Assembly: GCA_963824985.1 (NCBI GenBank)
Contig: CAWGRQ010000042.1
Coordinates: forward strand, 9,764 to 73,763
Length of the DNA stretch: 64,000 bases
From: Terriglobia bacterium
GTDB lineage: Bacteria; Acidobacteriota; UBA6911
Direction of reading: 5' to 3'
The translations under genes and the position numbers were made by a program. The notes under the pieces were generated by a model. It ran no database searches and was not told the DNA's origin. It saw only the letters and a list, made by a program, of their open reading frames with translations. Positions 3,749-63,340 of the stretch are shown piece after piece (position 1 is the first letter of the stretch; every line of letters starts with the position of its first letter).

Positions 3749-6159
3749 TCAGACTGAACGGAGAAGGGCTATCCCATGGCCGCGCGGGGTCAGCGCAGAT
3801 TCAGCCGGTCGAAAAGCCACACCTTGACCCAGTCGAGGCAGGCGAAGTAAACGATTCCAGCGCATGCCACGCCTAAGAAAAATGACGCGCGGATCGCCGG
3901 CATGAGAATGCCGCCGAGCGCAAGAATTGCGGCTGACGCCAAGCCAAACACGCGAGCTGCCTACGAGAAAACGGCTGGGCCGCGACTGCCAGAAGTGCCC
4001 CCGCTCCCGCAGGAGATAGACGCCGGCCTGCGAGCTGAGGATCAAAGTCGCAAACATCAAGGTTTGAAGATGCGGCATGTCCAGGCGGAGCACATTGATA
4101 GCCGTACAGGAAGACACCGAGTGAGAAGACCAGCTTGCAAGCCGGCGAGGACGGTGGCGGCCAAAAGAATGCCGCGGGTGTTCCATCGGTTCGGGCGCCG
4201 TGAGTACTGCCATCCGGTCGGTTGAGAGGGACATCGTAAGGAAGTCATTGAGGAAAAGGAACAGCACCATCAGCAGCGGCGTGATCGGCTTCGTGCCTGG
4301 TTACCAGAAATCCGATTACCAACAGCGCCATGATCTCGATCTTCTTGATCAGCATGTTGAGGGTGTAGGTGATGATGCGCTGGAATACAAGCCGGCTCGT
4401 TTCGATCGCGGGCACCACACCGCCCAGTCCCGGGCGGGTCAACACCATGGCTGCGGCGGCTTTCGCCACGTCGGTCGCGTTGGCTACCGCGATCCCCGCT
4501 TCGGCCTGACGCAGCGCAGGGGCATCGTTGACTCCGTCCCCGCTCATCCCAACCACCTCGCCACGACGCTGGAAAGCCCCGGACCAGCCGGAATTTGTCT
4601 TCGGGAAACACGCCGGCGAACACACCGCAGTCGAGCGCGTCTCCGCACAGGTCGCCGTGCGAGCTTTTCGGGCGAACAAACGTTGCCTGAAATCCCCACC
4701 TGTTCGGCCACACTGCGTGCCGTGATGGCATTGTCGCCGGTGACCATGACGATGCGGACGCCCGCGTCGCGGATCGCACTCACGACGGATTTCGAATCCT
4801 CGCGCACGGCGTCCTCAAGCCCCAGCAGACCGACAAGGCGCATTTGGCCCGCCGTTCCTTCGGCCACCCCAAGCACACGTTGCCCGCGTCCGACGATGAT
4901 TTCAGCCTGAGGTTGCCAGACCGTGTCCGCGGCGCCGGTCAGTTTCGCGACAACTGCGGGCGCACCTTTCATGAAACGGCGAGAGCCTTCTTTGATCACG
5001 ATACACAGCCTCAGCGCGCTTGGTGGCCGGGTCGAAAGGCTTGAACTCAATTCGCTCCATTTCGCCGTCCTGCCAGCCGCGGTCGGTGGCGGCCTTGATG
5101 ATGGCGCCATCCACGGGATCCTGACCGGCCGGGTCGCTGGCCAACGCCGCGGCACGCAGGAGATCCTCTTCGGATGCGCCAGGGGCGGCCCAGAGGGCGC
5201 TTACCGTGGCCTGGTTGCGAGTCAGGGTTCCAGTTTTGTCGCTGCACAACACGGTCATGGAGGCGATGTCGTGCAGGGCGCTCAGGCGTGTGATGAGGAC
5301 ACCGTGTTTGGAAAGTTCCACCGAGCCCAGCGCTGCCGCGAGCGTGAAGGTGGCGGGCAACGCGACTGGAATGGAGGCGAGCAAAATGGTCAGCAACAAC
5401 GGCAGAATGAAGCCGAGGGACATGCCGACGTGGTGGGCGTAGCCGATCACGATCACGACCATCGCCGCGTTTACGACGAAGAGGTTTTTGACTACACCCA
5501 CAATCTCGTGCTCCTGCCGGTTGGCCGAGCCTGCAGTACGAACGAGTTCGGCGGTCTTCCCGAAGAAAGTGCGTGCGCCCGTGGCGGCAACTTCACCCGT
5601 GGCCTCGCCGCCGCGCACCATGGACCCCGCGTAGGCCGTGCTTGCCGGACTCGACGGAAGCGGCAGCGGATTCGCCCGTGAGCGCCGATTGGTCCACGAG
5701 CAACGATCCGTCCTCCAGCTTGACGTCCGCCGGCACGATGGTGCCCTGTCGCAGATGAATGACATCGCCCGGCACCAGGTCCTCGGCCGGCAACGTGGTC
5801 CACACACCGTCGCGCCGAACGCGGGCCAGCACACTCGCAGTTGTTGACGCAGGAGCGCCAGTGCCTTTTGCGCGCGGCCTTCCTGCAGCAGGCTCAGCGT
5901 CAGCATTCAAAACGAGGAGTCCGCCGATCACGGCTGCCTCCACCCTCTCTCCGAGAAAGAGCTGGATGATGATCGTGGCTTCCAGCAGCCAGGGGATGGG
6001 CGCCCAGAACCGCTTGACGAAGGCCTTCAGCGGGTGGGCCTTTTCCTCCACGACGGCATTAGGGCCGTATTGCTTGAGCCGCGCCTGAGCTTCGGCAGTA
6101 GTCAGGCCCTGCTGGTTAGGAGATCGGACGATACTCGAAGCCGGGTTTTGCTCTGACAT
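3749..6159 (-). pseudogene. P-type ATPase (plasma-membrane H+/cation-efflux, P3-like) broken by multiple frame changes
   Basis: Homologous blocks lie in different frames. N-terminus: GLTTAEAQARLKQYGPN. Then LLQEGRAQKALALL, RVRRDGVWTTLPAEDLVPGDV...SALTGES, CSDKTGTLT (phosphorylation motif), VMVTGDNAITA, GDGVNDAPAL, and the C-terminal TM region. ORF-track pieces end at 6159, 5906, 5155, 4679 and 4270 in three frames, and the frame toggles within pieces. Confidence 0.8.
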
Positions 6160-6279
6160 GGTATCAGAATAGCGTGCCAGGCCTGGAGATTAAACCTTAT
6201 TCAAGAATGCAAAGGCGCCCGGTAAGCTCAAAGGCAAAAAACCGAATTCTCCAGGCCTGACACCGCGCCCGGGTTCGGC

Positions 6280-14863: not shown

Positions 14864-14965
14864 TCACATATTTGATCTGGCGGCATTGCCAAGCGATTAC
14901 GGCCAATCCTGATAAAGCGCCATTCGGGACAAGCACCCAAACTCGAAAAAATAGTGTGGCTGCAA

Positions 14966-24556: not shown

Positions 24557-27470
24557 ATGCCAAGAATCCGAACGCTCATCCTCATGGCCTTTTCGCTTGT
24601 GCTCACGCTGCAGGCGGCGCCCTTCCGTGCGGCACCCGAGGACAAGCGCCCGATCGAACTGGCGGACATCATGGCCTGGCGCCACGTGAATGCGTGGGCG
24701 CTGTCGGACGACGGCGTCTGGTTCGCGTATCACATCGGTCCAACCGAAGGAGACGGAGAGTTCGTCTTCCGGCAGACGCAGTCCGACAGGGAGTTCAGGT
24801 TCCCGGCCGGCGAGGTCGCCGGGAGGCCCGCCGCCCCGACGTTCTCGCGGGAGGCGAAGTTCGGCGCCTTCACAATTTACCCGACGCACGCCGAAGCCGC
24901 GCAGCTGAGACGACAGCGCCGTCCGCTCCAGAACAGGGTCGGCGTCGTAAACCTCGATACGGGGGACAAGGTTGAAGTGCCGAGGATTCGGAGGTTCGTT
25001 CTGGCGCCCGGCAACGGCGGCTGGATCGCGATGCACAAGTACGCCGATGCACCGGGTGGGGCCGCTCCCACGGCGGCGGCAAGGCCCCCGGCCCAGGGCA
25101 CCGACCTGCTGCTGCGCGAGCTGGCGACGGGTCAGCAGATCGTCATCGGGAATGTCTCAGATTTTGCCTTCGACAAGAACGGGCGGTTTCTCGCCTGGAC
25201 AGTCGGCACGGTGGACAAGGCCGGCAACGGACTGCAGGTGCGCGACATGGGCACCGGTGCAATCCGGTCGCTCGAATCGGACGACCGTGCGACGTATTCG
25301 CGAATGTCGTGGAGCGAGGACGGCGAGAGCCTGTCGCTGCTGAAAGCCCTCGAGGATCGAACGCCGGGCACGTTCCGATACTTCGTGATGGGCTTGACGG
25401 GATTCGGGGCCGCCACCCCGCAGAAGACCGTGTTCAATCCCGCGACCTCGCCCGACTTTCCTGCCGGCATGATGGTGAGCCCGAACCGGAATCCCACGTG
25501 GTCCGCCGACCGCTCGGCGCTCCTGTTCGGCATCCAGAGTTCGACCCGAGCCTCGCAGTTGCCTGCGGCGTCGCAGACGCGCGACCGCAGCGCGGGAGCG
25601 GATCCCAGGAGCGCCTCGGCGGCGCCCGCTGTCGGGGCCGACGACACGCCCGCAGAGGAGAAGGTCGATCTCGTGCTTTGGCATTGGCAGGACAAGCGGC
25701 TGCAATCGCAGCAACAGGTGCAGGAATCGACCGACCGGAACTTCAGCTACCTCGCCGAGTACCGGCCGGCCGACCGGAAGTTCATCCGCCTCGCCGACGA
25801 GCGCATGACCGACGTGGCGCCGGCACCCGGCAATCGATTCGCGATCGGACGCGACGACGATCCGTACGAGCTGATGGCCAATCTCGACGGCAAGCGTTTC
25901 CAGGACATCTACCTAGTCGATTTGGCCACTGGCAAGCGGACGCTCGCCCTCAGGAAATCGCGCTGGACCTACGGGCCCTCACCCACCGGCACACATTTTC
26001 TCTACTACGAAGACGGCAACTTCCACACGTATGACATGACGACGGGTCAGGCGACCAATATCACGAAAAACGTCCCGACTTCGTTCGTCGACGTCGAGGA
26101 CGATCATGCCGTCGTCAAGCCGCCGACGCAGTCGTTCGGGTGGTCCTCGGACGGGAAGGTTCGTTCTCCTCTCGGACGACTGGGACATCTGGCAAGTCCC
26201 GGTGGACGGGGGTACGGCGACAAACCTTACTCTGACCGGCAGGAAAGAGCAGATTCGATGCCGGCGGCCGCTCCTTCTCGACCCTGATCAGCGGGGCTTC
26301 GACCTGTCGAAACCGATCTATTTCGAGCTGTACGGCGAGTGGACGAAGAAGGGCGGCATCGGCCTCATCGAGCCCGGCACGCCCGGTGCAAGACGGCTTG
26401 TATGGGACGACGCCACCTACGCGGTGCCTGCGTTGATGAAGGCCAGAAAGGCGGACGTGTACATCCATTCGCGCCAGACCTCGACGGATCCTCCCGATTT
26501 CTACGTGACCGATGCGAAACTGACCGCCTCCAGGCGGATCACAAACCTGTCCGCGGGGACCGAACCCTTCCTCTGGTCGAGCGGGTCGATCCTCGTCGAC
26601 TATGTGAGCACGAAAGGGGACAAATTGCAGGGCGCCCTTTTCCTGCCCGCCAACTATGAAGAGGGCAGGTCTTACCCGACGGTCGTGAACATCTACGAGA
26701 AGATGTCGGCGAACCTGCATGCCTACACGCGACTCACGCAGCCGAACCCGACGAACCTCAACAAGGCGCTCTATACGAGTCGGGGATACGCCGTGTTCCT
26801 CCCGGACATCACATACAAGCTCGACGACCCGGGAATGTCGGCCGTTTGGTCGGTCGTGCCGGCCGTCAAGGCAGCGATCGCGACCGGCGTCGTCGATCCC
26901 CGACGCATTGGCATCATGGGGCACTCGTGGGGGGGCTACCAGACCGCGTTCCTCGTCACCCAGACGGATCTCTTCGCAGCCGCCGTGGCAAGCGCTCCGA
27001 TCACTGACTTCATCAGCATGTACTCGCTGATCTACAAGGCAACCGGAACCGCCAATAGCGTCGTTGCCGAGAGCACCCAGGGACGCTTCACCGCCTCCCC
27101 TTGGGAGAACCTGGAGCCGTACCTGCGCAACTCCCCGGTGCTCTTCGCGAAGAACGTGAAGACGCCGCTCCTGATGCTGCACAACGACAAGGACGGCGCC
27201 GTCGATTTCACACAGGGCGTCGAGTTCTACAACGCGCTCAGGCGGCTCCAGAAGCCCGTGGTGATGCTCGAGTACCCGGGCGAAACGCACGGCCTTGCAA
27301 AGCGCCCTAACGGAAAGGACTTCATGGCACGCGTGCAGGAGTTCTTCGATCACTACCTGCAGGGCAAGCCCATGCCGGACTGGTACAAGAACGGCGTGCC
27401 GTGGCTTGAGATGGAGGACCACCTGAAGTCGCGACAGGCGAAGAAGGCCACCGACCCGGCCGGACGATAA
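24557..27470 (+). CDS. Secreted S9 family peptidase (about 970 aa) interrupted by one frame change near 26160
   Basis: Signal peptide and propeller region are in ORF 24557-26287; the catalytic domain (GHSWGGYQTAF, GETHG) is in ORF 26106-27470 in another frame. The join ...FGWSSDGK/FVLLSDDWDIWQV implies a 1-nt insertion at gggaaggttcg. Confidence 0.8.
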
Positions 27471-35640: not shown

Positions 35641-35797
35641 GGAACTCTGATTTACGGCAGTGTGAGTTAAGAAACAGGATGGGGTCGGACCACGCTTATT
35701 CTTGAACTTGTCGAGTTTATGTTGCCCTGGACTCCTTAACCTGGGGCTTGTCCGCCCTCAAGCCGGAATTCAACTCCGGTCTGGGGCGGAACTCTGG

Positions 35798-36470: not shown

Positions 36471-36982
36471 GCGGGGTTGCTCGATTGCGTTCGAAAAACT
36501 CCTTCTAACCAAGGCGCATGCCGGCGGGGCGCAGGTCGCCGGCAGTGTTCCCACGCCCGGCGCGCCCAATAAATATTTCAGGAAGGGGCCAAGCGCGAAG
36601 AAGTAGCCGCGCGCGGCTCGATGCTCAGCTGGCGCGCATCGCCGACCATGACGGCAATGGTGCGCCAGGGCTGCACGGGGCCAGTGGACCAGCTGCCAGG
36701 CCAAAGGCTCTGTCCTTTTCGGAGAAAAACTCACCTCAGAGAACCTGGCCCCCGTCCCGCATCGCCGCTCTCACTTTTCCCATCGCCCGCGTCCTGCGTG
36801 GTCTGATCGAAGGCGACCGCAAGCTGCTCGGCCTGCTGTCCCAAACCGCCGGCGCGGCGATTTCGGCGTGCGGCAAAACCGCGCGCGGATCAATAAAGGC
36901 ATGAGACAGGTCAACCAAAGGCATCGCGTGTCTTTCTGCGAGCGCTTTGGAGAACAGGAATAGAGAAATTAGCATCGCATGA

Positions 36983-39900
36983 CTACCTGCGATCCAACCG
37001 CAGGGGCTGGCCGTTGTCGCCGAAGTAATTCAGTGTGACGAAGACTGCCCCCCCGGCCGCGATAAATATAAACTCCGTCTGGTACCCGCTGCCGTCGGCG
37101 GCCTGGGGGAATATAACCGGGAACGGTGCCGGCCGGGTAAGGTCGGCGATGGGAAATGTAGTGACGAGAAAGTCGCTCCGGGCGTTAAGCAGAGAGCGGA
37201 GCGTGAGCGCCACGAACGGCGTGTCGGAGGAAATCTCGAGCGACTCCGCGGAATCCGGGTGGTAAACCCGGGATTCTCTGGCCTACGAACTCGGCTTTGT
37301 GCCCATTGCCGTTCAGTAGCAAGGTTCCGTCACCGGTTCCAGCCGGAGTCGAGCCGTTCAGTTCGAACGCCTTCATCGTTATCGTACCGCCCGCCCCTCC
37401 GGGGTTGCCGATCGCCAGGCCGGTGTCGTGCGCTCCGGATTTGTCGACGAAGATCCGGGCCCGTGTTGTCGGCATCGACGAGGGGACTCCCGCCTCCATC
37501 ACCAGAATTCCGCCTGTGCTCAATTGAAAAATCCCGGCGCCTGCCGGGGTGGTTGTGCCCGCATTCGGAGCAACACGAACCCAGCCGATAGCGGCTGCCT
37601 GTGGGGCTCCGTCCGTCTGTAAAATAAACACTCCTGCCGGCGGGATCGAATAGTTTATCGAAGAAGCGGTCGTGCCGCCGACTGCTCCGACCGGCAGGGG
37701 ATTTCCTCCGTCGTCCGTGACCTGCAGTGTTCCCGTCTCGGTCGCGCCGGTCGTGTTGATGAGGATCACCGTCGTGGCATAACCCCCTCCATTGACCAGT
37801 TGGGGAAAGTAAATCGTGCCGCCGGAATCCGCCTGCATGAGGTCCGCAATCGGGATCGTGGTCAGCAGAGTCTCGCCGCGCTGGTTGACGGTCAGTCGCA
37901 GGGCGAGGATCGAGATCGGCTGGTCACTCGAGATTTCAAGGGATCCGAACCGGATCGTCGCGGGGAAACCGGCCGGCAAGGCAAAATTCGGCGCAATCTG
38001 ATTCAGTTGGTCGATGAATCTCGCTATGTGGGCGCCGGCATCGAGCGTGCCGTTTCCATTGGCAAGGGTGGTCCCCGCGCTGTCCCGCAAGCGGAAGGCC
38101 AGATGCGCGGTCGCACTTCCCAGGTTGACGATGGCGATTCCGGTGTTAATCTCCACGGTGCCTGCACCCAGCAGCCCGGGCAGGGACACTTGCGTTCGAT
38201 AGTCAATGAAAATGCGGGCAGATCTCGTGGGCGGCGATGCCGGGACTCCAGCCTCGCTCACCACGACTCCGTTTTGCATCAGGCTGAAAGCAGCCGTCGC
38301 ATACGAGGCTATGCCAAAGACGGGAGTGGCCGTCGCATACCCCACCTGGATGGGATTCGAGTCCCCCGGCGTGATAAGCCCTGCTACGCCACCGCTCCCG
38401 GCGGCCAGGTTGGTATTGGTTACCGGGCGGCCGCTCAAATTGAAGAGGATCGTCAGGGTGGAATTGCGGCCGTTTGGGATGGCGACGTCAGGCTTCCTGT
38501 CCAGATCAAGGTCGGCGATCGCCATGGATCCGAAACCAGTTCCGGCATCGAAATTGCGGGGGCTCTGGAATGAACCATCGCCATTTCCCGGGAAGAGGAT
38601 CAGAGCACCTTCTCCTGTGCTGGCGACCAGAATGTCGCGAAATCCGTCGCCGTCAAAATCGACAATTGCCGTGGATCCCACCCCGGAAAATCTGTAAAGC
38701 GTCGCCGGCAGATTTGCTGCCGCCCTGAAGGTCCCGTCCCCGTTGCCTGCCAAAAAAGCAAAATTGTATGTGAACTGGGGATTCTCGATGGCCGCGGCCA
38801 GGTCAAGAATGCCGTCGTGGTCAACATCGCCCAGGGCGAGCCGCCGGACCGCCGCACCGCTGAGAACATTGACTGCAGCTCGGAAGGTGCCGTCGCCATT
38901 GCCTAACATCACGGCCAGACTCCCGTTGATGCTGCCGGGCGTTCCGATACTCGCAATCGCCAGGTCCGTGCGGCCGTCGCGATTCAGGTCACCCGCGGTC
39001 AGCGTCAGTGACTGCTCCGCCGTCTGAAATGGCAGCCCTGCCTGAAAGGTGCCGTCCCCGTTGCCCAGGTAAACCACTCCCGCATTGCTCCTGGTGTCCA
39101 GCAAAACCAGATCCGGCAGTTCGTCATTGTTCACGCTCAGCGCCATCATAGGACCAATCTCGAAACTGTTGTTTCCGATTAGGATCTGTTGAGACTGAGT
39201 GAAGCCGCCGGCGCCGTTGCCCAGCAACACGAAGACATTCGGCCTGATGAAGCCCTGAGAGTCATTCCGCCTGTTTCCGGCCACATCCGCGTTGCCGTCC
39301 CGGTTGAAATCGGCAATTGCCAGAATCCCCTCCCGACCAAGGTCGATGCGCTGCTGGAATACCCTGCCCTTCTCACCAAGAAGAATGGCGCTGTTTGCCA
39401 GGTTGTTGCTGGCCGCCAGATCCGGATAGCCGTCATTATTGAAGTCTGCCACATCGACTTGGGAGGTGCCTCCATCACGGTCTGCGGTCAGGAAGGCGCG
39501 TCCCGCGAGGAAAGTGCCGTCACCGTTGTTGAGGAGTATCGAATCGTGGTCCGCATTGAAGTTATTGACATGGAGATCGAGGATCTGGTCTCCGTCCACA
39601 TCAATGACCGAGATGCGGAGCGGATAGTCGCTGACCACATAATGTTGCGGGGTTCTAAAAGTGCCGTCACCCTTGCCCAAAAGCACCGAGATGGAGGCGC
39701 TGAGGTAGTTTGCCGTGACCAAGTCCAGGTTGCCGTCACGATTCAGGTCGCCGGTCTCAATCGTTGCGGTGCTGTTACGGGGGAGGACGGGCACCTGGCG
39801 CGCCGGCTGGAAGGAGCCGTTGCCGTTGCCGAGCAGAATGGATAACGCGTCGAAAATACTGACGATAATGTCGGGGTTGCCGTCACGGTTCAGATCGCCG

Positions 39901-40709
39901 GCAGCTACCTTGTCGGATCCGCCGGCCTCCACCAGAACCGGCGCCTGAAAGGTCGCGTCCCCGTTGCCGAGCAGGACTGAGACCGTTGTCCGGTTGAGTC
40001 CCGGGCGTACCAGGTCGAGCCGGCCGTCCTTGTTGAAATCCCCAATGGCCACCGAGGCGGCGCCGGCACCGGGATCAAGGTTTATGGCCGCTTGGAAACT
40101 TCCGTCGCCTTTCCCCAGCAATAATGAGAGGCTTCCGTCGGATGCGCTGCGACCCTGGTTCGCCGTCACCAGATCGATCTTGCCGTCATTATTCAGGTCG
40201 GCGGCCAGGATTTTGACCGGAGCCTTTCCAACCGTAACGTTGGTTGCCACTCCATAAGACAAAGGAGCAGTCGCCGGTACGATCGAGACATCGTCGGAAT
40301 CCTGGTTAACAACTGCCAGATCCTCCAATCCGTCGCCGTTGAAATCAGCTAACACCATATCAATGGGAAACCGCCCCACCGCGATCTCCCGCCGGAGAGG
40401 GAATCCGCCCGCAGCCTTTGTTGAAAAAAGGTTAGGCAGATCCTTGAGGATCTCACAGGCGCCCTTCATGTCAAACAACCACTCCAACGCGTTCTTGTGT
40501 TCCGGCATGGGTTTGACCTGTAGCCCGGATCCGAGATCGCTCATGGAAAAATATGCAAGCCCTGCCAGAGTGTACTGCAAGTGGGTTACACCGTAGGGTG
40601 CTTTGCTTGTGGTACATGACGATTTGGCACCGGATTGCGCCCAGAGCTCCTGGCTGCCCAATGCCTGGTAGCCTGCCACGATAGCAAACGCCAAAATGCA
40701 ATTCACCAC
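36983..40709 (-). CDS. FG-GAP/VCBS-repeat giant secreted protein with four C-terminal beta-sandwich modules; one frame change near 37240
   Basis: At least 12 FG-GAP calcium-binding units (DFNGDGLEDLAVVN, DLNNDGKIDLVTAN, DLNRDGNPDIIVS ...). The last about 75 aa (LEISSDTPFVALTLRSLLN...VIFPQAADGSGYQTEFIF) continue in ORF 36983-37213 in another frame. Confidence 0.8.
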
Positions 40710-41924: not shown

Positions 41925-42238
41925 AGCGACGTCTCGTCCGTGAAGAACAACCATCTTCACATTGTTTCCTGCAAAGGTGTTTACTTCGTCACGCGGCTGA
42001 AAGACAACGCTGCCTTCTTAGTGGTCGAAAATCGGGCGATTCCAGCCGGAACGAATGTCCGCAGGGATCAGGTCGTCTACTTTCACAGCCAAGCCGTCCC
42101 CGACCGCGAGCACTTTTCAGGATCGTTGAAGTCTGGGACGAGGAAAAGCAGAGGTCGTTCACGTTCCTGACAAATCACCTTGAGTTTGCGGCGACAACGA
42201 TGGCGGCGCTCTACAAGGATCGCTGGGCCGTCGAGCTA
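41925..42238 (+). mobile_element. Internal fragment of an IS4-family (DDE) transposase gene, frameshifted and truncated at both ends
   Basis: GVYFVTRLKDNAAF...DQVVYF in one frame and RIVEVWDEEKQRSFTFLTNHLEFAATTMAALYKDRWAVELF in another (YxxRWxIExxF motif). No inverted repeats identified. Confidence 0.7.
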
Positions 42239-42242
42239 TTTA

Positions 42243-46033: not shown

Positions 46034-46327
46034 AAGTCCTCCTTGCATGTGGGAGATACCATTACGAGGATTCTATCTGTTGCGCAGCGAATTGTTCAAT
46101 CATTTCGAAAGGCTCGAAAATCATGAACCCGGTTGAGCTTCAAGTCTGGCACGCATTGCTGCCGGACATCAATACGGTCATCTAACACTAACAAAAACAC
46201 GATCTTGTCCGAAGAGCAGAAAAGAGGGCCTCTATTAGCGTTCTCCATCCGTAATGGAACCGGAGTGCGAGCGGGATTGAGGTCCGGCCCAGTGAAATCG
46301 AAATGTAGACAGACACGGAGGCTTTAC

Positions 46328-47112
46328 AGCGACGTGGACCGAAATGAGCTGGCCGCACACGGAGAGAATGGCGGGCTTTGGGATTGGAATCTGACATCCA
46401 GTTGGGTTCATTTTTCGCCCCGGTGGATCTCGATGGTGGGTTGCGAGGACCACGAGGTCGGGACCAAACCCGAAGAGTGGTTCCAGAGAATTCATCCCGA
46501 GGACCTGGAACAAGCACAGCGCGACATCGACGCCCACCTGGCAGGGAACTCCCGACAATTTGAAATTCACCACCGGCTGCTCCACAAGGACGGGACATAC
46601 CGTTGGATGTCCTGCCACGGCGTGATTGAGCGGAATGAAAACGGGCAGGCGGTCCGAATCGCAGGCTCCCACTCGGATATCACCGGGGAGAAGGTCGACG
46701 ATGCGCTGACCGGACTTCCAAACCGCCTGTTGCTGATGGACCGCCTGACGCGCTCCATTGCGCGTGCCAAACGGCGCGCTGACCACATTTTCGCCTTGCC
46801 GAGAGAACCGGGCTGATTGTGCCCTGGGCCGATGGGTTTTGCATGAGGCCTGCCGGCAGCTCAAGTCCTGGCAGGAGCGCATGCTGGCCCCGAACGACCT
46901 CTGGGTTTCTGTGAATATATCCGGCCCACAATTCGCTCAGTCCTCCCTGGTTGAACAGATTCGCGAGGTTTTGCATGACATCCAGCTGGCGCCGTATTGC
47001 CTGATGCTGGAGCTCACGGAAGGCGTGGTGATGCAAAATCCGGAAGCCGCCAGCAGTCAGCTCATGCAACTGCGTGTCATGGGAGTGCAAATCGGACTCG
47101 ATGGTTTCTCTA
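46328..47112 (+). pseudogene. PAS-GGDEF-EAL signalling protein remnant (internal deletion, frameshift, 3' truncation)
   Basis: A PAS block (GLWDWNL...FSPRWISMVG...YRWMSCHGV) runs into the GGDEF start (LTGLPNRLLLMDRL...RRADH). It then jumps directly to EAL blocks (LAERTGLIVP, LGRWVLHEACRQL, LELTE, IGLDGF) in other frames. Confidence 0.75.
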
Positions 47113-47146
47113 TCCATGACTTCTTTGCCTTTGTGCGGCAGGTGGA

Positions 47147-47881
47147 CATGATGTCGATGATGTGGCCCGGCTGACGGCGCAGTTCGCCGCGGCGCTCGAT
47201 GCCGGCCGGCCAGTGCATGATGATGGGAGTAGCGATGCCTCCCTCATGCGTCCAGTGCTTGAAGAGCCGGAACGGCGTGTTGGAGACGTTGGCCCACGGA
47301 TACCCGTAGCTCTGATAGGTGTCGGCGGGGCCGGGCATCACGCCGGGATCGTTGAAGAACCGCACGGGTTTTCCGTCCCGGGTGGTTTTGCGGGCCACCC
47401 GCTCCTTGCCCTCGAGGAGGTAGTTTCCCCAGCTCGGGGTCAACTCCTCGTGGCAGCCCCCGTTGTCTGAAAGGAAGAAGACGAGGGTGTTTTCGCGCGC
47501 TCCCGTCTTTTCGAGCGCGGCGAGGATCCGGCCGATGCCCTGATCGAGATGGTCGATCTGGGCCGCATAGACTTCCATGCGACGGAGCTGCCAGGCCTTC
47601 TCGGGGGCGTTCTCCCATGCGGGTACGTTGGCGTCCCGCGGGCTCAGCCGCCATACCTCGGGAACGATTCCCATTTCGATCATGCGGCGATGGCGTTCCG
47701 AACGCAGAACATCCCACCCCTGGTCGAAACGGCCGCGATAGCGGGCGATGTCCTCCTCGAGGGCGTGAAGAGGCCAGTGAGGTGCGGTGAAGGCGGCATA
47801 CAGGAAGAAGGGCTTGTCGGGCTTGTCGCGGCGATGGTCGTGGATGTAGCTGACCGCATGGTCGGCAATTGCGTCGCTCAC
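47147..47881 (-). pseudogene. Arylsulfatase fragment lacking the N-terminal catalytic (CxPxR) region and the C-terminus
   Basis: KPFFLYAAFTAPHWPLHA, LVFFLSDNGG, HEGGIATPIIMHWP and GHIIDIM blocks. A stop codon lies immediately upstream of the first aligned residue. Confidence 0.75.
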
Positions 47882-47998: not shown

Positions 47999-49057
47999 AT
48001 GACAAAGCCGTTGAGTTCCATCCTCATCAAGCCAGCGGGGCCGGACTGCAACATGGACTGCACTTACTGTTTCTATCGCAAGAAGGCTGATCTATTCCCG
48101 GACGATCCGACTCATCGGATGACGGATGAGATCCTGGAAGAGACGGTGAAACAGGCCATGGAGCAGGCCGGTGCCTCCATCTCCTTCGGCTGGCAGGGAG
48201 GCGAGCCCACCCTTATGGGACTGGAGTTCTTCCGGAAGGCCGTTTCGTATCAGCAGCGCTACGGCCGCGGCCAGACGGTCGGGAACGGGCTTCAAACCAA
48301 CGGAATCCTTCTTGACCGGGAATGGGCCGCCTTTCTCCGTGAATACAACTTCCTGGTCGGCCTATCGCTGGACGGACCGGAGCATGTCCATGACCGCTAC
48401 CGTCTCGATTGCGGGGACAAGGGCACTTGGGCGCACGTCGTCAACCGGGCTGCACTGCTCCTCGATGCCGGCGTGGCCGTCAACGCCCTCGTCGTCGTCA
48501 ACGACCATGCCGTGCGCTTTCCGGATGAGATCTACAACTACCACAAAGAAATCGGCCTGACCCATCTGCAGTTCATTCCGTGCCTGGAGCCCGATCCCCG
48601 GCTGCCGGATGCGCGGGCTTCCTTCTCAACCCCCGTTCAGGAGTACGGGCGGTTTCTGGCCAGGGTGTTCGATCTGTGGCTGGCGGATTTCCGGGGCGGG
48701 AAACCGGCCACCTACATCCGTTTTTTCGATTCCGTGTTCTACTCCTATGTCGGACTCACTCCGCCGGACTGCACCCTGCTCCCCGAGTGCGGGGTCTACG
48801 TCGTGGTCGAACATAACGGAGACGTGTATTCATGCGATTTTTTCGTCGAGCCGCAATGGAGATTGGGGAACGTCCTTGAAGGCAGGCTCGCCGGCATGCT
48901 GAACTCGGAACGGCAGGATTCATTCGGCAGGCTCAAGTCCTCGCTGGCCGCGGACTGCCTGCAGTGTCGCTGGTTGTCTTACTGCCGGGGGGGCTGTCCG
49001 AAAGACCGCAGGTTCAATGCCAGGGATCCGAAACTCGATCATTTCTGCACATCCTAA
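47999..49057 (+). CDS. Anaerobic sulfatase-maturating enzyme-like radical SAM/SPASM protein; in-frame TAA at 49055 precedes a 60-codon tail ending at 49240
   Basis: CNMDCTYC (CxxxCxxC), GGEPTL, and SPASM cysteines (CDFF..., CLQCRWLSYCRGGCPKDR). The same frame continues after the TAA as [12 protein letters not shown]...[18 protein letters not shown]. Confidence 0.8.
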   Translation: MTKPLSSILIKPAGPDCNMDCTYCFYRKKADLFPDDPTHRMTDEILEETVKQAMEQAGASISFGWQGGEPTLMGLEFFRKAVSYQQRYGRGQTVGNGLQTNGILLDREWAAFLREYNFLVGLSLDGPEHVHDRYRLDCGDKGTWAHVVNRAALLLDAGVAVNALVVVNDHAVRFPDEIYNYHKEIGLTHLQFIPCLEPDPRLPDARASFSTPVQEYGRFLARVFDLWLADFRGGKPATYIRFFDSVFYSYVGLTPPDCTLLPECGVYVVVEHNGDVYSCDFFVEPQWRLGNVLEGRLAGMLNSERQDSFGRLKSSLAADCLQCRWLSYCRGGCPKDRRFNARDPKLDHFCTS

Positions 49058-49509
49058 AGGATCTTTTTCGCGCACGCGCACGAACGGCTGCAGGATTCTG
49101 GCCGAGGAGTGGAAGCAGGCGCAGATAAGGACCGCCGGGCTGCCTCGGAGGTTTTACAGCCGATTCCTCGCAGAAGGCCCGGCCGGAATGATTCCTGCCC
49201 GTGTGGGAGCGGCCTGAAATACAAGAAGTGCTGCGGCTGAGCGGGATGACTGAGCGCACCATAGTATCATTACGGGAAATAGGCGCAGGTTGTCCGGCAG
49301 CCGTAGAATAGCGGTCAGGAGACAGGGAGCGTAGTGGTGATTTCAGGATCGGTATCGCATCCGGTATCGGCCCTTATTCAGCAGCGCTGCGGTCGAATCC
49401 TGACTGCGATCCCGATGCCGCTTCCTGATTGCAGCCCCGATTCCGATCGTTGGGCAATCGGCGTCGTCAGTCCGCGATCGATCTGCCACCATGGAAGGGA
49501 GGATGTGAC

Positions 49510-51635: not shown

Positions 51636-51736
51636 GCGCCTCCTAGGTAAAGCGGGTGTCAGCAGATGTACCCGTGCATTTTACACATATCCGGCGCAAG
51701 CAAGGAGCAAAAATGATGGATAATCGCGACAGTAAT

Positions 51737-52010
51737 TGTTTAGCCAAATCAATGGATGAAGAAGCAAAACGCAAAGACGCAAAGGCGCAAGGACGCAAAG
51801 ACCGACGCCGAGCAACAGGCGTGGGCGCAGCGCTTCGCGCTGGCGCATCCTTGGGCGAGCCGCGGGAGAAAGCGCGGGCAGCGGCCACTCAGGAGGATTG
51901 CGCTTTCTCGCGCGGCTCGCCCAAGGATGCGGCCGTAGGCCGCCCACGCCCGCGAACCGGAAGGAATCTCTTTGCGTCTTTGCGTTCTGCTGTTCAGAAT
52001 CGGCTAAACA
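51737..52010. repeat. 274-bp imperfect palindrome
   Basis: Inner arms 51845-51875 / 51900-51930 (30/31 complementary) around a 24-nt loop. Outer perfect blocks 51768-51784 / 51970-51986 and 51737-51745 / 52002-52010. Confidence 0.85.
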
Positions 52011-52546
52011 GTTGCTCGCGACAAGCTGCCGTTTTGGAGTTCAGATCTCCCGGCAGACGTACACTCCAGGTTTCGATATCGGGAATTATGTCAAACTGGC
52101 AGAAGCACATGCCGTCCGGCAGCAGGTTGGCGGCGACGCTCATCACTCCGGCAAAACCCTTGATGAACATGTCCATGTCGCCGGTCTGCTCAAAACCGTC
52201 CAGCAAAGCCATGCCGTTCAGTGATTCGGAATACCACGTCGACCACCAGTTGCGCCGGTCGTTGCCATACCGAAACCACAGCGGCTCATTGCCGCCGCGG
52301 AGCGCCTTAATGACCCGCATGGTCTTGGCATTCTTCTCGGTCTCGCCAAAGTATTTGGTAAAAAAGTAGACTTGTTCGTGGGCGGTCTGATCGATCGTCA
52401 GCTCCGAGCTGTAGGGGTATGGATCGCGCACCATGACCTTGAGGCATTCCTCCATCCTGGTCCGGAGGTGGGAGGATCAGGCATCTTTCATAGGCACGTT
52501 GCACTGCGGCTATGGCAATGTCAGCCGCTTCGATACTGCGGGACAA
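51994..52546 (-). pseudogene. Fragment of an uncharacterised protein (two frames, truncated at both ends)
   Basis: Protein-like stretch DPYPYSSELTIDQTAHEQVYFFTKYFGETEKNAKTMRVIKALRGGNEPLWFRYGN...; the upstream part is in another frame. The 3' end runs into the palindrome and the 5' end abuts the RND gene. Confidence 0.4.
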
Positions 52547-52574: not shown

Positions 52575-54690
52575 TCAGTGGCAGGGGAGCAGGGCTTTCG
52601 AGGCCGGGCGCTTCCGTGACACGAGATAGTAGAGCACCGGCATGGCCACCAGGGCGAGCACGAGCGTCGACAGCAGGCCCCCCACGATTACCGTTGCCAT
52701 GGGGCGCTGAATATCGGAACCGATCCCGGTCGCCGTTGCGGCCGGGATCATGCCGAGGAGAGCGACCAGAATAAGCAGGAAGTTGGGGGCCAGCCGGGCT
52801 CGTGCGGCCCGAAGAGTGGCGTCCTTCACGGGTATTTCCGATTGAGCGCGGAGCCGGTTGACCTCAGCAATGAAGAGAACCCCGGTCATGATGGCGACAC
52901 CGAAGACCGATATGAAGCCGACGCCGGCTGACACGCTCAGAGGGATGTCGCGCGCCAGGAGCGCCAGGATTCCGCCTACCAAAGAAAAGGGCACGTTTAA
53001 GAGCACCAGGAATGCATCGAGGGCGGATTCGAATGCGAAAAACAGCAGTCCGAACATCAACACAATGGTAAGCGGGATGATGATCGCGAAGCGGTGACGC
53101 GCGCGCGCCAGGTTTTCGAACTGCCCGCCCCACTGGATATGATAACCCGCCGGCAGCTGCACCTCATCCGCCAGGCTCCGTTGGGCTTCTGCCACAAAGC
53201 TCCCCTGATCACGTCCGCGAATATTAGTGCGCACGCTGATCTGTCGCCGATTCTCGCGCCGGGTAATGATGCTTGCCCCGTCCGTCACAGAAATCGCCGC
53301 GAGCTGCGCCAGGGGCAACCGCCCGCCTTCCGGCGTCATGACCAGGAGGTTGCGGATTGACGAGAGATCGCTGCGCGCTTCGGGGACATAGCGCACGGTG
53401 ATTTCAAACCGGCGGTCGCCTTCGAACATCGTGGAGACGGCCTGTCCGCCGATCGCCAGTTCGATCACCTGTTGCACATCGGCGATATTCAAACCATAAC
53501 GGGCTACCGCCTGGCGATCGATTTCGATCCGCAGTTGCGCCTGATCGGCATCCTGTTCAATAGAGCTGTCGGCTGCGCCGCGGATGTTCTGCACGAGGTT
53601 GAGGGTCTTGGCCGCGAGGGCGCGCAGCACGGACAACTCCGGACCGGTGAAAATTACGGCCAGATCGGCCGAAGAGCCGGTTACAGCTTCCGTTACCATG
53701 TCGATGATCGGCTGGGTAAAATTCAGCTTGATCCCGGGCAGATCTTTCCGGAGCCGGGCCTCCATTTCATTGACAAGCATGGGTTTCGTCCGGCCTCGCT
53801 CCCAGGTCCGGTACGGGGTGAGCGCGACCAGTAACTCGGTGCGGTTCGGACCGAACGGTTCCGTATTCGAGTCCTGGCGCCCGGTTTGCGAGCTGACAAG
53901 ATCCACTTCAGGCGTCAGCCGGATGAACTCCCGGATGCGGGTGGCAACTCGCGCCGATTCCTCGATCGCGGTTCCTGGAGGCAGAGTGGCCTTGATCCAG
54001 ATCATGCCCTCGTCCAATTGGGGCAGGAATTCGGTGCCGAGGCCTCGTCCGGCCATGAAGGCGCCGATGGTCAGAGCGACAGTGACTGCGGCGACCGCGT
54101 AAGGCCTGCGCAATAGCCGGCGCAAGAGGCGATCATAAGGGAGTATGCTCCAGGCAATCAGCCGGTTGGGCCGGGAGCGAAAGCCCTTGCCAAAAAAGAG
54201 AGTGGCGAGCGACGGGACCAGACTGGTCGTCAGCAGCAGTGAACCAAGCAGGGCATAACAGATCGTATATGCCATGGGAGTGAACAGGCGCCTTTCGACG
54301 CTTTCCAGGCCGAACAGGGGAATGTAGGCCGAGATGATGATCATAAGGGATACAACCACCGGCAGCTCCATGTCACAGGCGGCGGCTTTGACTGTGTCGA
54401 CTGGGTTTTCGACCTGCCCATTCGTCTGCCGGTCCGAAAGCGATCGGAGGATGTTGACCACCATCACCAGCGTCCCGTCCACGATGATGCCGAAGTCAAG
54501 TGCCCCCAGGCTGAATAAATTGGCGGGAATGCCCGAAACGTACATGCAGAGAAAGGCGAAGAGCAGGGAAAGCGGAATGGTCAAGGCCGTCAGGAGTGCC
54601 GCGCGCGCGGAGCCAAGAAACAGGAGTAAAACCCCTATGACAATGACCAGCCCCTCGAAGCGCGCGTCTTCGACCGGCCCTCCGAAGCTT
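52575..54690 (-). pseudogene. RND efflux pump, CusA/CzcA (heavy-metal efflux) type, lacking about 340 N-terminal codons
   Basis: The frame opens at a TAG near 54690 with ...FEGLVIVIGVLLLFLGSARAALLTALTIPLSLLFAF, and the protein is colinear with CusA/CzcA from there to the C-terminus. No start region, membrane-fusion gene or outer-membrane-factor gene is adjacent. Confidence 0.75.
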
Positions 54691-54948
54691 TTGGGCTAGT
54701 AATTCGCCGATCCGCCGCCGTTGCCGTCGAGGCGCATCGAGCCGTCCCTGTGATATGTTGCCACCGGACATCGGGGATTATTCACCGGTAGACTCTCGTA
54801 GTTGACCCCCAGGCGATACCGGTGCGCGTCCCATAGGAGACGATGCGGATGTCTGGAAAGTTTGAGGAGTCACAAATTCGAGCGATTCCATGGAAACTCG
54901 GGGGCACGGATCTGCCGTGCCCCCGGGAGGGAAAAGGGGAAACGGGCC

Positions 54949-55335: not shown

Positions 55336-55382
55336 CTATCATCGAGCTGAAAGCTCCTTGGCATGAATCTGGTGAGATCAAG

Positions 55383-56047: not shown

Positions 56048-56494
56048 ATGGGTGAGAGGATACGCATCGGAATCATCATATGTCACAGGTATCACACCTG
56101 CGCGGGGGGCAAATGCTTCCGTGCCCTGCGCAATCGCGAAGGAGCATTTGAAGTGTATCGTGATCAGGAGATCGAACTCGTCGGGTATACGACTTGCGCG
56201 GGCTGTCCGGGCGGCAACATCGAATATGCGCCCGAAGAAATGCAAAAGAACGGCGCAGAGGTCGTGCACCTGGCTACAGGGCTGGTGGTCGGGTACCCAC
56301 CCTGTCCCTACATCAGTTTCTTCAAGGAGTTCATTGAGTCGCGGTACGGATTGAAGACGGTAATCGGCACACACCCGATTCCGGAGAAATACTACCGCAT
56401 CCATTCCGATCTTGGGACCTGGGCGGATCCTGTATGGAATGAAATCCTGAAGCCAACGCTAACGGACGAGAAAACCCGCCTCGACTATAATTAG
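56048..56494 (+). CDS. CGGC domain protein
   Basis: IICHRYHTCAGGKCF...GYTTCAGCPGGNI...VHLATGLVVGYPPCPY, a Cys pattern typical of the CGGC domain. GAGGAGGAG RBS. Confidence 0.75.
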   Translation: MGERIRIGIIICHRYHTCAGGKCFRALRNREGAFEVYRDQEIELVGYTTCAGCPGGNIEYAPEEMQKNGAEVVHLATGLVVGYPPCPYISFFKEFIESRYGLKTVIGTHPIPEKYYRIHSDLGTWADPVWNEILKPTLTDEKTRLDYN

Positions 56495-56687
56495 AGGATG
56501 GGTCGATCACCGCCACCTGTTTCATGACGCGGATCTGGGGCCCGGCCAAGCCTACACCCTCGTGAAAATACATGGTCTCAAACAGGTCTGCCACGAGCTG
56601 GTGCAGGCCGGAATTGTCGAACTCCGTGACCCGATCGCAGGGTGTCTCCAGGCAACGGTCCGGACAGAGAATGACGTCGCGAATCAT
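56495..56687 (-). pseudogene. def: 5' stub (about 64 codons) of peptide deformylase
   Basis: MIRDVILCPDRCLETPCDRVTEFDNSGLHQLVADLFETMYFHEGVGLAGPQIRVMKQVAVIDPS. The GxGLAAPQ motif is present; the EGCLS and HExxH motifs are absent. Homology ends where the convergent CGGC gene stops. Confidence 0.7.
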
Positions 56688-61378: not shown

Positions 61379-61930
61379 ATGAAGCCCATATCCTTCATGC
61401 CTGCGCTGCTGGTACTGTCGGCTGCCGTTGCGGTGGCGTTCATGCGCGATATTGGGTGGGTGATCGCTGCGCTGCCTGTAAGCCTTGTGCTCAACATCGG
61501 GTCATGGCGAAGCCTTTCCAAAGCGATGCGCGCGATGCTACCGGTCGCGCTGTTTGTCCTGACCCTGATCTTGCTTCAGTGGCTCTATCGCCGGCCCGAG
61601 CCTATGGTTGCCGCAAAGACCCTGGCCGTCTTCTGGCTCACCACGGCGGCATTCCGTTGGGTGCCTTGGTCTGGGCTTGCAGGCGCGATCCGCCCGGAAT
61701 CGCGGGCCTCGGCCTTTATCTTCTATTTACTGTTCGTCCGTCATTTTGCATCGATCCTGGTTGTGGAAGCAGGCCGTCTGCTCCACGCGAGATCGCGCGC
61801 GGTCCCGCAGACTTGCGGCCACTGGGCTTTCCGGTCTCTCACGGCTGCGCTGGTCTCGTTGTTTGGGCGCGCCGGGATCCGAGCCGAGCGCTTCTATGCG
61901 GCCCTTTTGTTGAAAGGACTTGTAGAGTGA
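61379..61930 (+). CDS. Short CbiQ/EcfT-like transmembrane (T) component
   Basis: 183 aa, hydrophobic. C-terminal EAGRLLHARSRAV and RAERFYAALLLKG resemble degenerate Ala-Arg-Gly coupling motifs. Start lies 2 nt after the methyltransferase stop. Confidence 0.5.
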   Translation: MKPISFMPALLVLSAAVAVAFMRDIGWVIAALPVSLVLNIGSWRSLSKAMRAMLPVALFVLTLILLQWLYRRPEPMVAAKTLAVFWLTTAAFRWVPWSGLAGAIRPESRASAFIFYLLFVRHFASILVVEAGRLLHARSRAVPQTCGHWAFRSLTAALVSLFGRAGIRAERFYAALLLKGLVE

Positions 61931-62620
61931 AGTCTGTCCTTGAGGTGGCAGGGTTGAATTTCAGCTTCGAGCGGAGCCGGCCGGTTCCTGCAAAACATCG
62001 ATTTCCGCGTACCGGAAGGCGAATACCTGGGGATCGTCGGCGGAAATGGAGCCGGAAAGAGCACACTCCTCTGGTGCCTTTTGGGATTGCTCAAAGCCAG
62101 CGGGTCTATCCGCTTTTTTGGGGAAGAAATCAGCAAGAGAGCACTGGAGCGGATTGCCATGGTTTTTCAGAATCCGGAGGACCAGCTGTTCATGCCCGCG
62201 CTCTTGGACGATGTGGCTCTTCCACTGGTCAATCGTGGTGTAGGGATAACCGAGGCGCGGCGCATGGCTCTGGATAAGCTGGATAAGCTCGGCCTAGGTG
62301 ATTTAGCGGGCCGTCCGGCAACCAGGCTGAGCATCGGCGAGCAGAAACGCGCCTCGATTGCCGCAGCCTTGAGCACGTCGCCGGAGCTTCTGCTGTTGGA
62401 TGAGCCCACGGCTGAACTGGATGGGCGGTCGGTGCGTCAGCTTGCTGGTTTATTGGCAAAGCTCGCCGTTACAACGATAGTGACCAGCCATCACCTCGAT
62501 TTCCTGCGCATGATCACTTCCCGCACGCTTGTGCTTAGCAAGGGTAGAATCATCGCGGACGGCCCCATGCCGGATATCCTCGGTAATCAGACCCTGCTCC
62601 AGGCTGCGGACCTGATATAA
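61927..62620 (+). CDS. ECF/CbiO-type ABC ATPase (A component) with one frame change near 61987
   Basis: GTGA overlap with the T gene. VKSVLEVAGLNFSFERSRPV (frame 1), then LQNIDFRVPEGEYLGIVGGNGAGKST (Walker A), VFQNPEDQLF (ECF-type Q-loop), LSIGEQKR, LLLLDEPTAELD (frame 2). The extra c is in ggttcctg. Confidence 0.75.
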
Positions 62621-62698: not shown

Positions 62699-62807
62699 GG
62701 CATGATCGAGGTCGCCGCAGGAGGCACGGATCGCGGCCGTCCCACCCGCATGGTCTCTGTGGACGGGACACCCGCGATCCGTCGGTTGAAGGCTTGCCCC
62801 CAGGCGT

Positions 62808-63340
62808 TCAGACCACGTTCTGAGCCTCGAGGGAACTGAGCTTGTCGTGAGCGTAGTTGAGCCGGGCCGTCAGACGGTGCGCGGCAGAGGCCTCGTGGTC
62901 CAGACGCAGCATGTAATAGCCAGTCCTCTGGCTTATCGGATAAACTCCCCCGAGACCTTCGAGCGGAGTGGCCTTGTAAGCAGGAGGGGCGTGGGTATCG
63001 GGATCGAGCCCGGTCCGGGCGATGGCGGAGCCGCGAATAGCGGCGCGGACGGCGGGATGGGAGGGTTGGCCGGCCGCGAGTGCCTGCTGTTGCGGCGTCA
63101 AGCCCAGAACCCCGGGATTCATGCCAATTCGGGTGAATCCGCTCTCCTGGCGTCGCAATTGTTCAAACGAGGCGAAAAAAAACGTGCGGTTGACCCGCAA
63201 TGGCCCCCCGAAGCCGCCGAGAGAATCAGCCAGAGCAACAGTGACAGGGGCCTGCTTACCGGATCAGCCACCCGCCCGCCGACGTTGCCCTCAGAAAAGA
63301 CCCGTAGGGCGACAAAGCCAAGCACGTTCGCGGATCGCAT
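62808..63340 (-). pseudogene. Internal fragment of a large TonB-dependent receptor-like protein
   Basis: RVNRTFFFASFEQLRRQES... and ...RLDHEASAAHRLTARLNYAHDKLS are typical barrel segments. No plug or C-terminus. The upstream part is in another frame. Confidence 0.5.

Follow-up and report, generated by a model that had tools for sequence, protein, structure and literature searches.

Gene disruptions clustered in a stretch of an acidobacterial MAG probably combine patchy consensus indel errors with gene remnants

The disrupted genes in a 64,000-nt stretch of a draft MAG of the Terriglobia (contig CAWGRQ010000042.1 of assembly GCA_963824985.1; the whole stretch is called the window in the following) are probably best explained by two processes. 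The small lesions would be patchy indel errors of the consensus sequence, and the gene stubs are probably real remnants. Assembly error is proposed for the small lesions because essential genes are hit genome-wide, the breaks cluster at contig ends, a signature of decay is lacking, and at least one of the lesions seems to be missing from an independent contig. Indel noise cannot generate the stubs, which are regarded as probably real. The preliminary description of the window had left the choice between gene decay with rearrangement and a bad assembly; the assembly is now supported as the source of the frameshifts and single lesions, and real deletions and duplications are the best explanation for the stubs.

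Results

The MAG consists of 52 contigs, with an estimated completeness of 85% and an estimated contamination of 0.64%. Our own recount yielded about 16-17 disrupted loci among about 47 in the window, which replaces the earlier tally of about 23 among about 52. The clustering of the damage was found again: about 23 of the about 29 small lesions fall in two genes, encoding a P-type ATPase and a BNR/sortilin protein, and the stubs gather at 46-57 kb. The long open reading frames that had been called clean (GlgX, both SSS transporters, WD40, GH127, and the TonB receptor) are indeed uninterrupted. Synteny with congeners is poor, collinearity with G005, G001, and G004 being limited to the SSS and MFS genes, and many dispersed repeats are present. 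The idea that all stretches classified as "non-coding" by a codon model are junk was dropped, as they harbor BON, CcmH, CGGC, and DUF5320 genes with atypical codon usage, and also a riboswitch and two sRNAs.

For the P-type (H+/Mg-type) ATPase gene (3790..6159, minus strand) at least six frame switches had been reported. A frame-followed alignment over the full length with the intact orthologue of G006 raised this to 11 frame-breaking insertions, at about 5901, 5836 (2 nt), 5640, 4994, 4660, 4576, 4288, 4211, 4143, 4096, and 3951, and revealed not a single deletion. Most of the insertions are located outside of homopolymers. Nucleotide identity to the orthologue is 86.6%, and amino acid identity is 88% when the frame is followed. 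The divergence at the three codon positions is 0.076/0.055/0.253, i.e., strongest at the third position, and the frame-followed gene does not contain an in-frame stop over its full length. The damage stays inside the limits of the gene, and true pseudogene decay would look alike, which counts against an artefact.

The second gene with repeated frame switching, encoding the BNR/sortilin-VPS10 protein (30609..33318, minus strand), was compared with an intact orthologue of 922 aa on contig C11 of G005, and 12 frame-breaking indels were found, six insertions and six deletions. All of them are located within 31523-33133, and the 3' 0.9 kb are free of them; the restriction to 1.87 of 2.79 kb has a p value of about 0.008. 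The frame-followed 5' part is 77% identical to the orthologue at the amino acid level, with a divergence of 0.164/0.125/0.435 at the three codon positions, and the frame-followed gene is free of in-frame stops over its full length. A JGI contig that clustered with the 3' end of the gene was rejected, as it stems from another species (87% nucleotide identity). In both genes together, 20 of the 23 indels comprise 1 nt, and none of the 23 indel-bearing segments contains an in-frame stop. Neither relaxed selection nor the deletion-biased indels of varied size that characterize pseudogenes were found in the two genes.

Further small lesions affect single sites. Single lesions had been described, and were found to be one-nucleotide shifts, in the second S9 peptidase gene (24557..27470, plus strand; an extra G in GGGAAGGTTC at about 26160), in the gene for an FG-GAP/VCBS repeat protein (36987..40709, minus strand; at about 37276), and in the gene for an ECF-type (EcfA-like) ATPase (61926..62620, plus strand; at about 61973, near codon 16). 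A lesion missing from the earlier list affects a gene of 720 bp (35786..36504, minus strand), which has lost 1 nt at 36314 in comparison with its 99.2% identical copy on contig C24. The reported in-frame TAA in the anSME gene (47999..49237, plus strand) was located at 49055-49057; the N-terminus with its CxxxCxxC motif is intact, and the stop cuts off the SEC-C tail. The orthologue of G005 is continuous through this point to the end of the tail (...KYKKCCG), and the TAA may be a substitution error of the assembly or else a real nonsense mutation. The lesion in the small membrane protein was not confirmed: its 86-aa Transgly_assoc reading frame spans the whole profile, and an independent contig encodes an 86-aa Transgly_assoc protein at the matching position.

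An independent k-mer (Logan) contig of ERR12037368 carries a partial gene of 97 residues, which ends at the stop of the ATPase gene and continues without interruption as far as the edge of the contig. Its frame is thus open across the insertion site at about 3951, which is incompatible with the extra base of the window near 3951; in this way one of about 30 small lesions was checked, by gene-call geometry and not by sequence. The contig could represent a co-occurring strain that carries an intact ATPase gene. The predicted 97-residue product was not found in the clustered protein collection, but the BON protein, which is demonstrably encoded on that contig, is absent from it as well, so that this negative carries no weight. 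A homologue search with the C-terminus of the ATPase did not yield a near-identical intact copy. What it did return were numerous short C-terminal fragments, located on long contigs in other public assemblies. Among the proteins looked up there by exact match, two intact ones were found on short Logan contigs of ERR12037368, while four other intact small proteins and five fragment or stub reading frames remained unmatched, numbers that are too small for a comparison of the classes.

The breaks are not confined to the window. Genome-wide, 899 frameshift-like junctions were found, which equals 15.5 per 100 kb, and the same method yielded none in 120 kb of the high-quality congener G005, three in 60 kb of G001, and five in 60 kb of G004. 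The frame breaks at about C38:132640 in the essential gene rpoC and at about C43:150900 in dnaK, atpD passes through the frames 2>0>2, and lon contains at least two shifts, confirmed with Pfam. Single Pfam stretches cross the joints (HSP70 1-597/599, RNA_pol_Rpb1_5, an AAA domain, and Lon_C). The junctions are over-dispersed, with a variance/mean ratio of 2.5 in 5-kb bins and 36 patches of at least four junctions, and the patches cross gene borders, e.g., at gnd and its neighbors, in the alternative complex III/oxidase cluster, and at selA-selB. Junctions are enriched near contig ends, with 82 of them no more than 3 kb away where 48 were expected (P = 7e-6). It had been argued that random indel errors would be spread more evenly; this does not hold here, and the conclusion that clustered damage must be biological is unsafe, because the assembly errors of this genome themselves cluster.

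These results make it unlikely that the ATPase gene, the BNR gene, and the genes with single lesions have been inactivated by genuine recent pseudogenisation, i.e., by real indels during a mobile-element-driven genome erosion. Such a process would be in agreement with the poor synteny, with the observation that accessory genes take the damage next to long intact neighbors, and with the presence of true remnants, IS debris, and a MITE of more than 150 copies in the same window. However, rpoC, atpD, dnaK, and lon are broken alike, and a loss of rpoC or atpD is very unlikely in a living cell. The indel-bearing segments of the two multi-frameshift genes lack stops and have kept a third-position-biased divergence. 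Bacterial pseudogenes are deletion-biased, contrary to the insertion-only ATPase gene. In addition, the confinement of the BNR indels to a part of the gene, the enrichment of junctions at contig ends, and the open frame of the Logan contig at the 3951 site all speak against inactivation. Likewise improbable is a partly biological origin, in which the accessory genome of a soil Acidobacteriota lineage erodes with the help of the 285-bp MITE, the stubs and the diverged duplicates of promoters and 5'-ends are leftovers of that erosion, and some of the indel-riddled genes are truly dead in the sequenced population.

The stubs were assessed by their coverage of Pfam profiles. A sulfatase remnant (47057..47881, minus strand; profile 147-291/301) has lost its 5' part including the region of the catalytic residues and its 3' end, and about 820 nt are absent between it and the anSME gene in comparison to G005. 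A PAS-GGDEF-EAL remnant (46133..47174, plus strand; GGDEF 4-33, EAL 47-154) has lost about 620 nt internally and is cut short at the 3' end. Only an internal fragment of a DUF5695 gene is left (52031..52453, minus strand; profile 587-718/857), and the orthologues of relatives are long open frames that are 91-95% identical. The gene for an RND (AcrB-type) transporter (52575..54690, minus strand; profile 334-1020/1021) lacks the N-terminal third, without an ACR_tran match upstream of it in any frame, and is abutted by a 44-residue catalase fragment (54699..54869, minus strand; profile 333-376/383). Further truncated genes are a 5' stub of the peptide deformylase gene def (56331..56687, minus strand; profile 2-65/156) and a fragment of an outer-membrane beta-barrel protein similar to TonB receptors (62811..63263, minus strand; profile 46-183/838). 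The 5' stub of an MFS gene (33398..33649, minus strand) is part of a 229-bp duplication: 33520-33748 is copied, with 93.5% identity, from 11570-11798, and this source contains the promoter of the intact MFS gene (10401-11699) together with its first codons. The stretch at 41958..42241 (plus strand, two frames), which, from its motif, we take to be the remnant of an IS4-like transposase, did not yield a match in the Pfam search; an intact copy is absent from the genome, and one weak relative is located on contig C40. A 285-bp nested palindrome similar to a MITE (51731..52016), which occurs more than 150 times in the genome, flanks the DUF5695 remnant and directly adjoins this stub only; at the other stub junctions, neither target-site duplications nor element ends were found.

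The list of stubs that had been proposed therefore stands for RND, sulfatase, PAS-EAL, def, the outer-membrane barrel, the MFS 5' end, and IS4. It was not confirmed for the kinase, MBL, Tat-signal, and TonB fragments, which lacked a significant family match, nor for the anti-sigma stub, in place of which two minus-strand reading frames downstream of the sigma gene were found, both of them also present on an independent contig. We agree that the stubs are beyond the reach of indel errors. A real evolutionary history of the stubs is indicated by the Pfam profiles, which are covered only in part, by the intact orthologues of relatives, and by duplicates that diverged by substitutions only. The large truncations typical of true pseudogenes are thus found in the stubs, and the congeners have intact orthologues of the sulfatase, anSME, and DUF5695 genes.

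A chimera of a mixed population, in which the consensus was formed from different strains or paralogues and the patches and stub junctions are haplotype switches or mis-joins at repeats, is decidedly unlikely. The small contig C10 might be taken as a hint, as it repeats 55057-56725 including the def stub with 96.8% identity and ends there, and numerous dispersed repeats, the damage in patches, and an estimated completeness of 85% although the contigs are long, which suggests assembly trouble, point in the same direction. Nevertheless, the stub junctions examined are located in unique sequence and not in repeats. The stub duplicates differ from their copies by 53 substitutions and no indel over 1669 nt, and in CcmH and CGGC 15 of 22 substitutions (own count) are at the third codon position; such a coding-like divergence is expected for real paralogues or alleles. 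Moreover, the estimated contamination is low, and the ATPase gene has no close paralogue that could have been mixed in, the best one being only 36% identical at the amino acid level.

A restoration of the frames by programmed frameshifting or by editing of the transcripts is extremely improbable: the indels add up to 0 mod 3 in the ATPase gene as well as in the BNR gene and the first eight shifts of the latter alternate between two frames, but a common sequence motif is absent across the 23 shift sites, the congener orthologues are single open frames, one shift is missing from the independent contig, and genome-wide consecutive shifts return less often than expected by chance (98 return, 141 progress), so that a meaning of the compensating alternation in the BNR gene was dropped.

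Discussion

Patchy consensus errors together with stub remnants would account for the window as follows. The consensus would carry patchy indel errors of 1-2 nt throughout the MAG, and both genes with many frameshifts, like the four genes with a single shift, are probably selectively constrained and functional. Low or mixed-strain coverage in an assembly of the long-read type would be the most likely cause of the local patches of poor consensus. Superimposed on this noise are probably about nine or ten true gene remnants, which might have been formed by large deletions and by segmental duplications that later diverged by substitution, within a poorly syntenic and repeat-rich accessory region. 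Indels that are mostly outside of homopolymers, and an ATPase gene with insertions only, are unlike the textbook consensus errors of nanopore or HiFi sequencing, and this counts against an artefact.

The value of the finding is mainly in quality control. The species-representative genome of a public taxonomy carries about 900 frameshift-like breaks, core genes included, and claims about pseudogenes, decayed operons, small novel reading frames, or lost functions in this genome need support at the level of reads. For a bacterial accessory region, neither the real remnants nor the high-copy MITE is out of the ordinary.

The small lesions resemble the indel-error "pseudo-pseudogenes" of long-read or low-coverage assemblies, which Watson and Warr are said to have described in Nat Biotechnol in 2019. 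The likeness extends to 1-nt indels that split conserved and even essential genes, to a genome-wide excess of truncated reading frames, to a lowered estimated completeness despite long contigs, and to a poorer consensus at contig ends. The differences are that most indels are located outside of homopolymers here, that one gene has insertions only, and that the lesions form hot patches of 1-3 kb instead of being evenly spread. With the reductive decay of Mycobacterium leprae and Sodalis-type symbionts the window shares disrupted genes beside intact ones, debris of mobile elements, and remnants that retain their starts. In true decay, however, essential genes stay intact and the lesions include stops and deletions, with relaxed selection, whereas here rpoC and atpD are broken, the repaired frames are free of stops, and signatures of purifying selection persist. 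The stubs (RND, sulfatase, DUF5695, def, and the MFS 5' end) are similar to remnants associated with MITEs and IS elements, as they are located in a non-syntenic region with the high-copy 285-bp MITE, the IS4-like remnant, and duplicates that diverged by substitution. They differ from such remnants in that only the DUF5695 fragment abuts the MITE, while neither element ends nor target-site duplications were found at the other junctions.

Disrupted loci in the window

The genome assembly, in which the window is C42:9764-73763, comprises 5.79 Mb in 52 contigs with 60% G+C, was rated by a genome service at 85.3% completeness and 0.64% contamination, and has congeners with about 80% nucleotide identity as its closest relatives. 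A codon model was trained on its own long ORFs, and a seven-state Viterbi procedure was used to assign coding frames along all contigs. In the window, multiple frame switches were found in two minus-strand loci, 4276-6115 and 30607-33318, and a few single switches in the remainder. About 15 kb were scored as non-coding; these stretches contain real genes (BON, CcmH, CGGC, and DUF5320) as well as one c-di-AMP riboswitch and two Acido-Lenti-1 RNAs. The riboswitch (ydaO-type, 12395-12548, plus strand) is above the Rfam gathering score, and directly downstream lies a 654-codon gene with an SPFH/Band-7 domain (12645-14609), which is not known to be among the cargo classes of this riboswitch. The Acido-Lenti-1 motifs are both full-length (14819-14864 and 24373-24418, plus strand; 56 and 53.5 bits) and lie in otherwise non-coding-looking stretches.

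The preliminary description, which had reported clustered disruption of about 23 of about 52 loci, was partly right. The disruption is real, but the count is lower, about 16-17 of about 47, i.e., six loci with small indels, one with a nonsense codon, and nine or ten remnants. Family searches gave no support for the proposed kinase, MBL, Tat-signal, TonB-fragment, and DUF499-like stubs.

Small lesions in the P-type ATPase, the BNR gene, and single loci

An intact orthologue of the P-type ATPase gene (3790-6159, minus strand) with an open frame of 857 codons was found in the congener G006 by read-through of the window gene. The DNA alignment (window 3739-6167, 86.6% identity) contains 11 lesions. 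At each of them the window has extra bases, 1 nt in ten cases and 2 nt in one, and there is not a single deletion. The neighbouring base is duplicated in only four of the 11, and runs of at least three identical bases are unaffected. When the frame is tracked across the insertions, the gene is complete, has the start and the stop of the orthologue and no internal stop, and encodes a protein that is 88% identical. The divergence at codon positions 1, 2, and 3 is 7.6%, 5.5%, and 25.3%. Homologues of the C-terminus in other public assemblies (P0012, P0013, P0019, P0023, P0029, and P0030) are orphan ORFs of 88-108 residues on contigs that range from 36 kb to 969 kb in length, which suggests that the gene is split there as well.

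A Logan contig of 1783 nt from run ERR12037368, compared by its gene calls, encodes a BON protein identical to that of the window (3154-3720). On the left side the calls match the window. On the right side the contig carries a partial gene of 97 residues (1490-1783, minus strand, corresponding to window 3790-4084). Its stop is the true ATPase stop (TGA, 3790-3792), and its frame stays open as far as the edge of the contig. In this frame the window has a TAG at 3961-3963 because of an extra base near 3951. Therefore, judged from the gene calls, the Logan contig is free of this frameshift. A second Logan contig, with the ECF sigma factor, matches the window and likewise has two minus-strand ORFs at the place of a presumed anti-sigma stub, for which family searches also gave no support. 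Exact look-ups of several other window proteins in public assemblies yielded no further useful match.

The second multiply shifted gene encodes a BNR/sortilin-VPS10 protein (30609-33318, minus strand), and its orthologue in the congener G005 is intact (922 aa). Its frame is broken by 12 indels, half of them insertions and half deletions, and ten of the 12 are 1 nt long. All lie within the 5'-most 1.87 kb of the gene, which is 2.79 kb long; the chance that the last 0.92 kb would be free of indels is about 0.008 if they were evenly spread. The frame-tracked 5' part is 77% identical to the orthologue, has no stop, diverges by 16.4%, 12.5%, and 43.5% at the three codon positions, and is, if anything, more conserved than the indel-free 3' part. 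The genome has over ten further paralogues in this family, and their frames are uninterrupted. Base substitutions are normally several-fold more common than indels. The ATPase and the BNR gene together show 23 indels but no stop and retain the signatures of purifying selection, and this is not the pattern of neutral decay, under which stop codons would also be expected.

Single shifts were found in the second S9 peptidase gene (near 26160, an extra G in GGGAAGGTTC), the gene of an FG-GAP protein (near 37276), and an EcfA-like ATPase gene (near 61973). A 720-bp gene (35786-36504) lacks one base, at 36314, that is present in a 99.2% identical copy on contig C24; the two copies also differ by five substitutions. 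The gene for an anaerobic sulfatase-maturating enzyme (anSME, 47999-49237) has a complete N-terminus with the CxxxCxxC motif, and an in-frame TAA at 49055 separates the SEC-C tail, which is still in the window. The orthologue in G005 is continuous through to its end in a SEC-C-type motif, and the TAA is either real, as a nonsense mutation, or an error of the assembly. A lesion had also been proposed for a small membrane protein; however, its 86-aa ORF covers the Transgly_assoc profile completely, and an independent contig has a Transgly_assoc gene of 86 aa called at the corresponding position.

Frameshifts throughout the assembly

Signature motifs of core proteins were sought in the six-frame translation of the assembly, and the surrounding open frames were inspected. 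The rpoC gene has 1073 open codons and then carries on in a different frame, dnaK is split between frames, atpD uses frames 2, 0, and 2 within 130 nt, and lon has at least three frame changes according to the codon model. Single Pfam domain matches span the joints, i.e., HSP70 (1-597 of 599), RNA_pol_Rpb1_5, and two joints of lon (AAA domain and Lon_C), and the N-terminal and nucleotide-binding domains of the ATP synthase beta subunit are in different frames. The joint in dnaK is the loss of a G from a G run; those in rpoC, lon, and atpD are single extra bases. It is very unlikely that a cell with a frameshifted beta' subunit of RNA polymerase is viable, and an aerobe would be crippled by a frameshift in its ATP synthase beta subunit.

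Frameshift-like junctions were counted wherever the coding frame changed on the same strand and the frame left behind was still open for at least 31 nt. The assembly contains 899 of them (15.5 per 100 kb) and the window 17 (27 per 100 kb). With the same code, 120 kb of G005, an assembly of 10 contigs with a completeness rating of 100%, gave no junction, 60 kb of G001 gave three, and 60 kb of G004 gave five. The raised number in the latter genome (loci L018-L020; 80% complete, 70 contigs) may reflect the same assembly problem.

The junctions are over-dispersed (variance/mean 2.5 in 5-kb bins), with 36 patches of at least four junctions, and they are enriched near contig ends (82 versus 48 expected within 3 kb, P = 7e-6; 34 versus 16 expected within 1 kb). 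The patches cross several neighbouring genes with housekeeping functions. The densest, with 8-11 junctions each, affect 6-phosphogluconate dehydrogenase (gnd) and its neighbours (C44:64.9-67.5 kb), an alternative complex III/oxidase cluster (C47:76.5-79.3 kb), an ABC-2 transporter (C27:49.5-52.1 kb), and selA/selB near the start of C7 (3.0-5.6 kb). The argument that random error would be spread more evenly thus fails, because the errors of this assembly are clustered everywhere. The alternating, self-compensating shifts in the BNR gene and atpD were considered as meaningful, but this idea was dropped because consecutive shifts return to the earlier frame more rarely than by chance throughout the genome (98 returns versus 141 progressions).

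Truncated genes

It had been argued that indel errors cannot produce stubs. This is right, and the stubs were confirmed. In the RND protein, the match to ACR_tran does not begin until position 334 of 1021, and the remainder was not found in any upstream frame. A sulfatase piece covers profile positions 147-291 of 301; in the same divergent sulfatase-anSME pair of G005 (88-90% identical), the sulfatase is full-length and the two matches are about 820 nt further apart. The PAS-EAL gene has retained PAS, 30 GGDEF positions, and the middle of EAL, and in all homologues the two matching parts are separated by an additional 620 nt or so. Further remnants are a catalase piece (44 residues), a def stub (65 codons), an outer-membrane barrel fragment, an IS4-like remnant in two frames, and 140 residues of the 857-position family DUF5695, for which relatives have long open frames 91-95% identical to the piece. 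The latter lies between the RND gene and a 285-bp MITE-like element (51731-52016). This element has nested inverted repeats, with 20-nt terminal arms, an inner 32-nt palindrome, and CGCAAAGA-type repeats, and more than 150 copies (about 80-97% identity) occur on almost all contigs.

Two segments are duplicated. The MFS promoter and first ~45 codons (11570-11798) are copied directly upstream of the BNR gene (33520-33748, 93.5% identical), and the block of CcmH, CGGC, and the def stub (55057-56725) recurs at C10:4940-6608 with 96.8% identity. C10 is a 6.6-kb contig that terminates exactly at the edge of the 1.67-kb block, which is either a paralogous copy or the allele of a second strain binned into the genome. 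Misassembly would yield identical copies. However, the two copies of this block differ by 53 substitutions and no indels in 1669 nt, and by our count 15 of the 22 substitutions in CcmH and CGGC are at third codon positions. Because the copies have diverged in this coding-like pattern, the stubs are regarded as remnants that are probably real, in an accessory region prone to rearrangement and with little synteny to the congeners.

Origin of the small lesions

Gene decay and rearrangement, one of the two alternatives proposed for the region, is a plausible though ordinary reading of the stubs; the frameshifts give it no support. For the small lesions, patchy consensus errors are the best explanation. 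The patches are probably low- or mixed-coverage stretches of a metagenome assembly of the long-read type. This is favoured because long contigs pass through the many copies of the 285-bp repeat, because the errors are mainly indels, and because the ATPase homologues in other public assemblies are short C-terminal fragments on very long contigs. The main value of the finding is caution about this genome. The contexts of the small lesions are mostly non-homopolymeric, and in this they differ from the classic error profile of current sequencing platforms.
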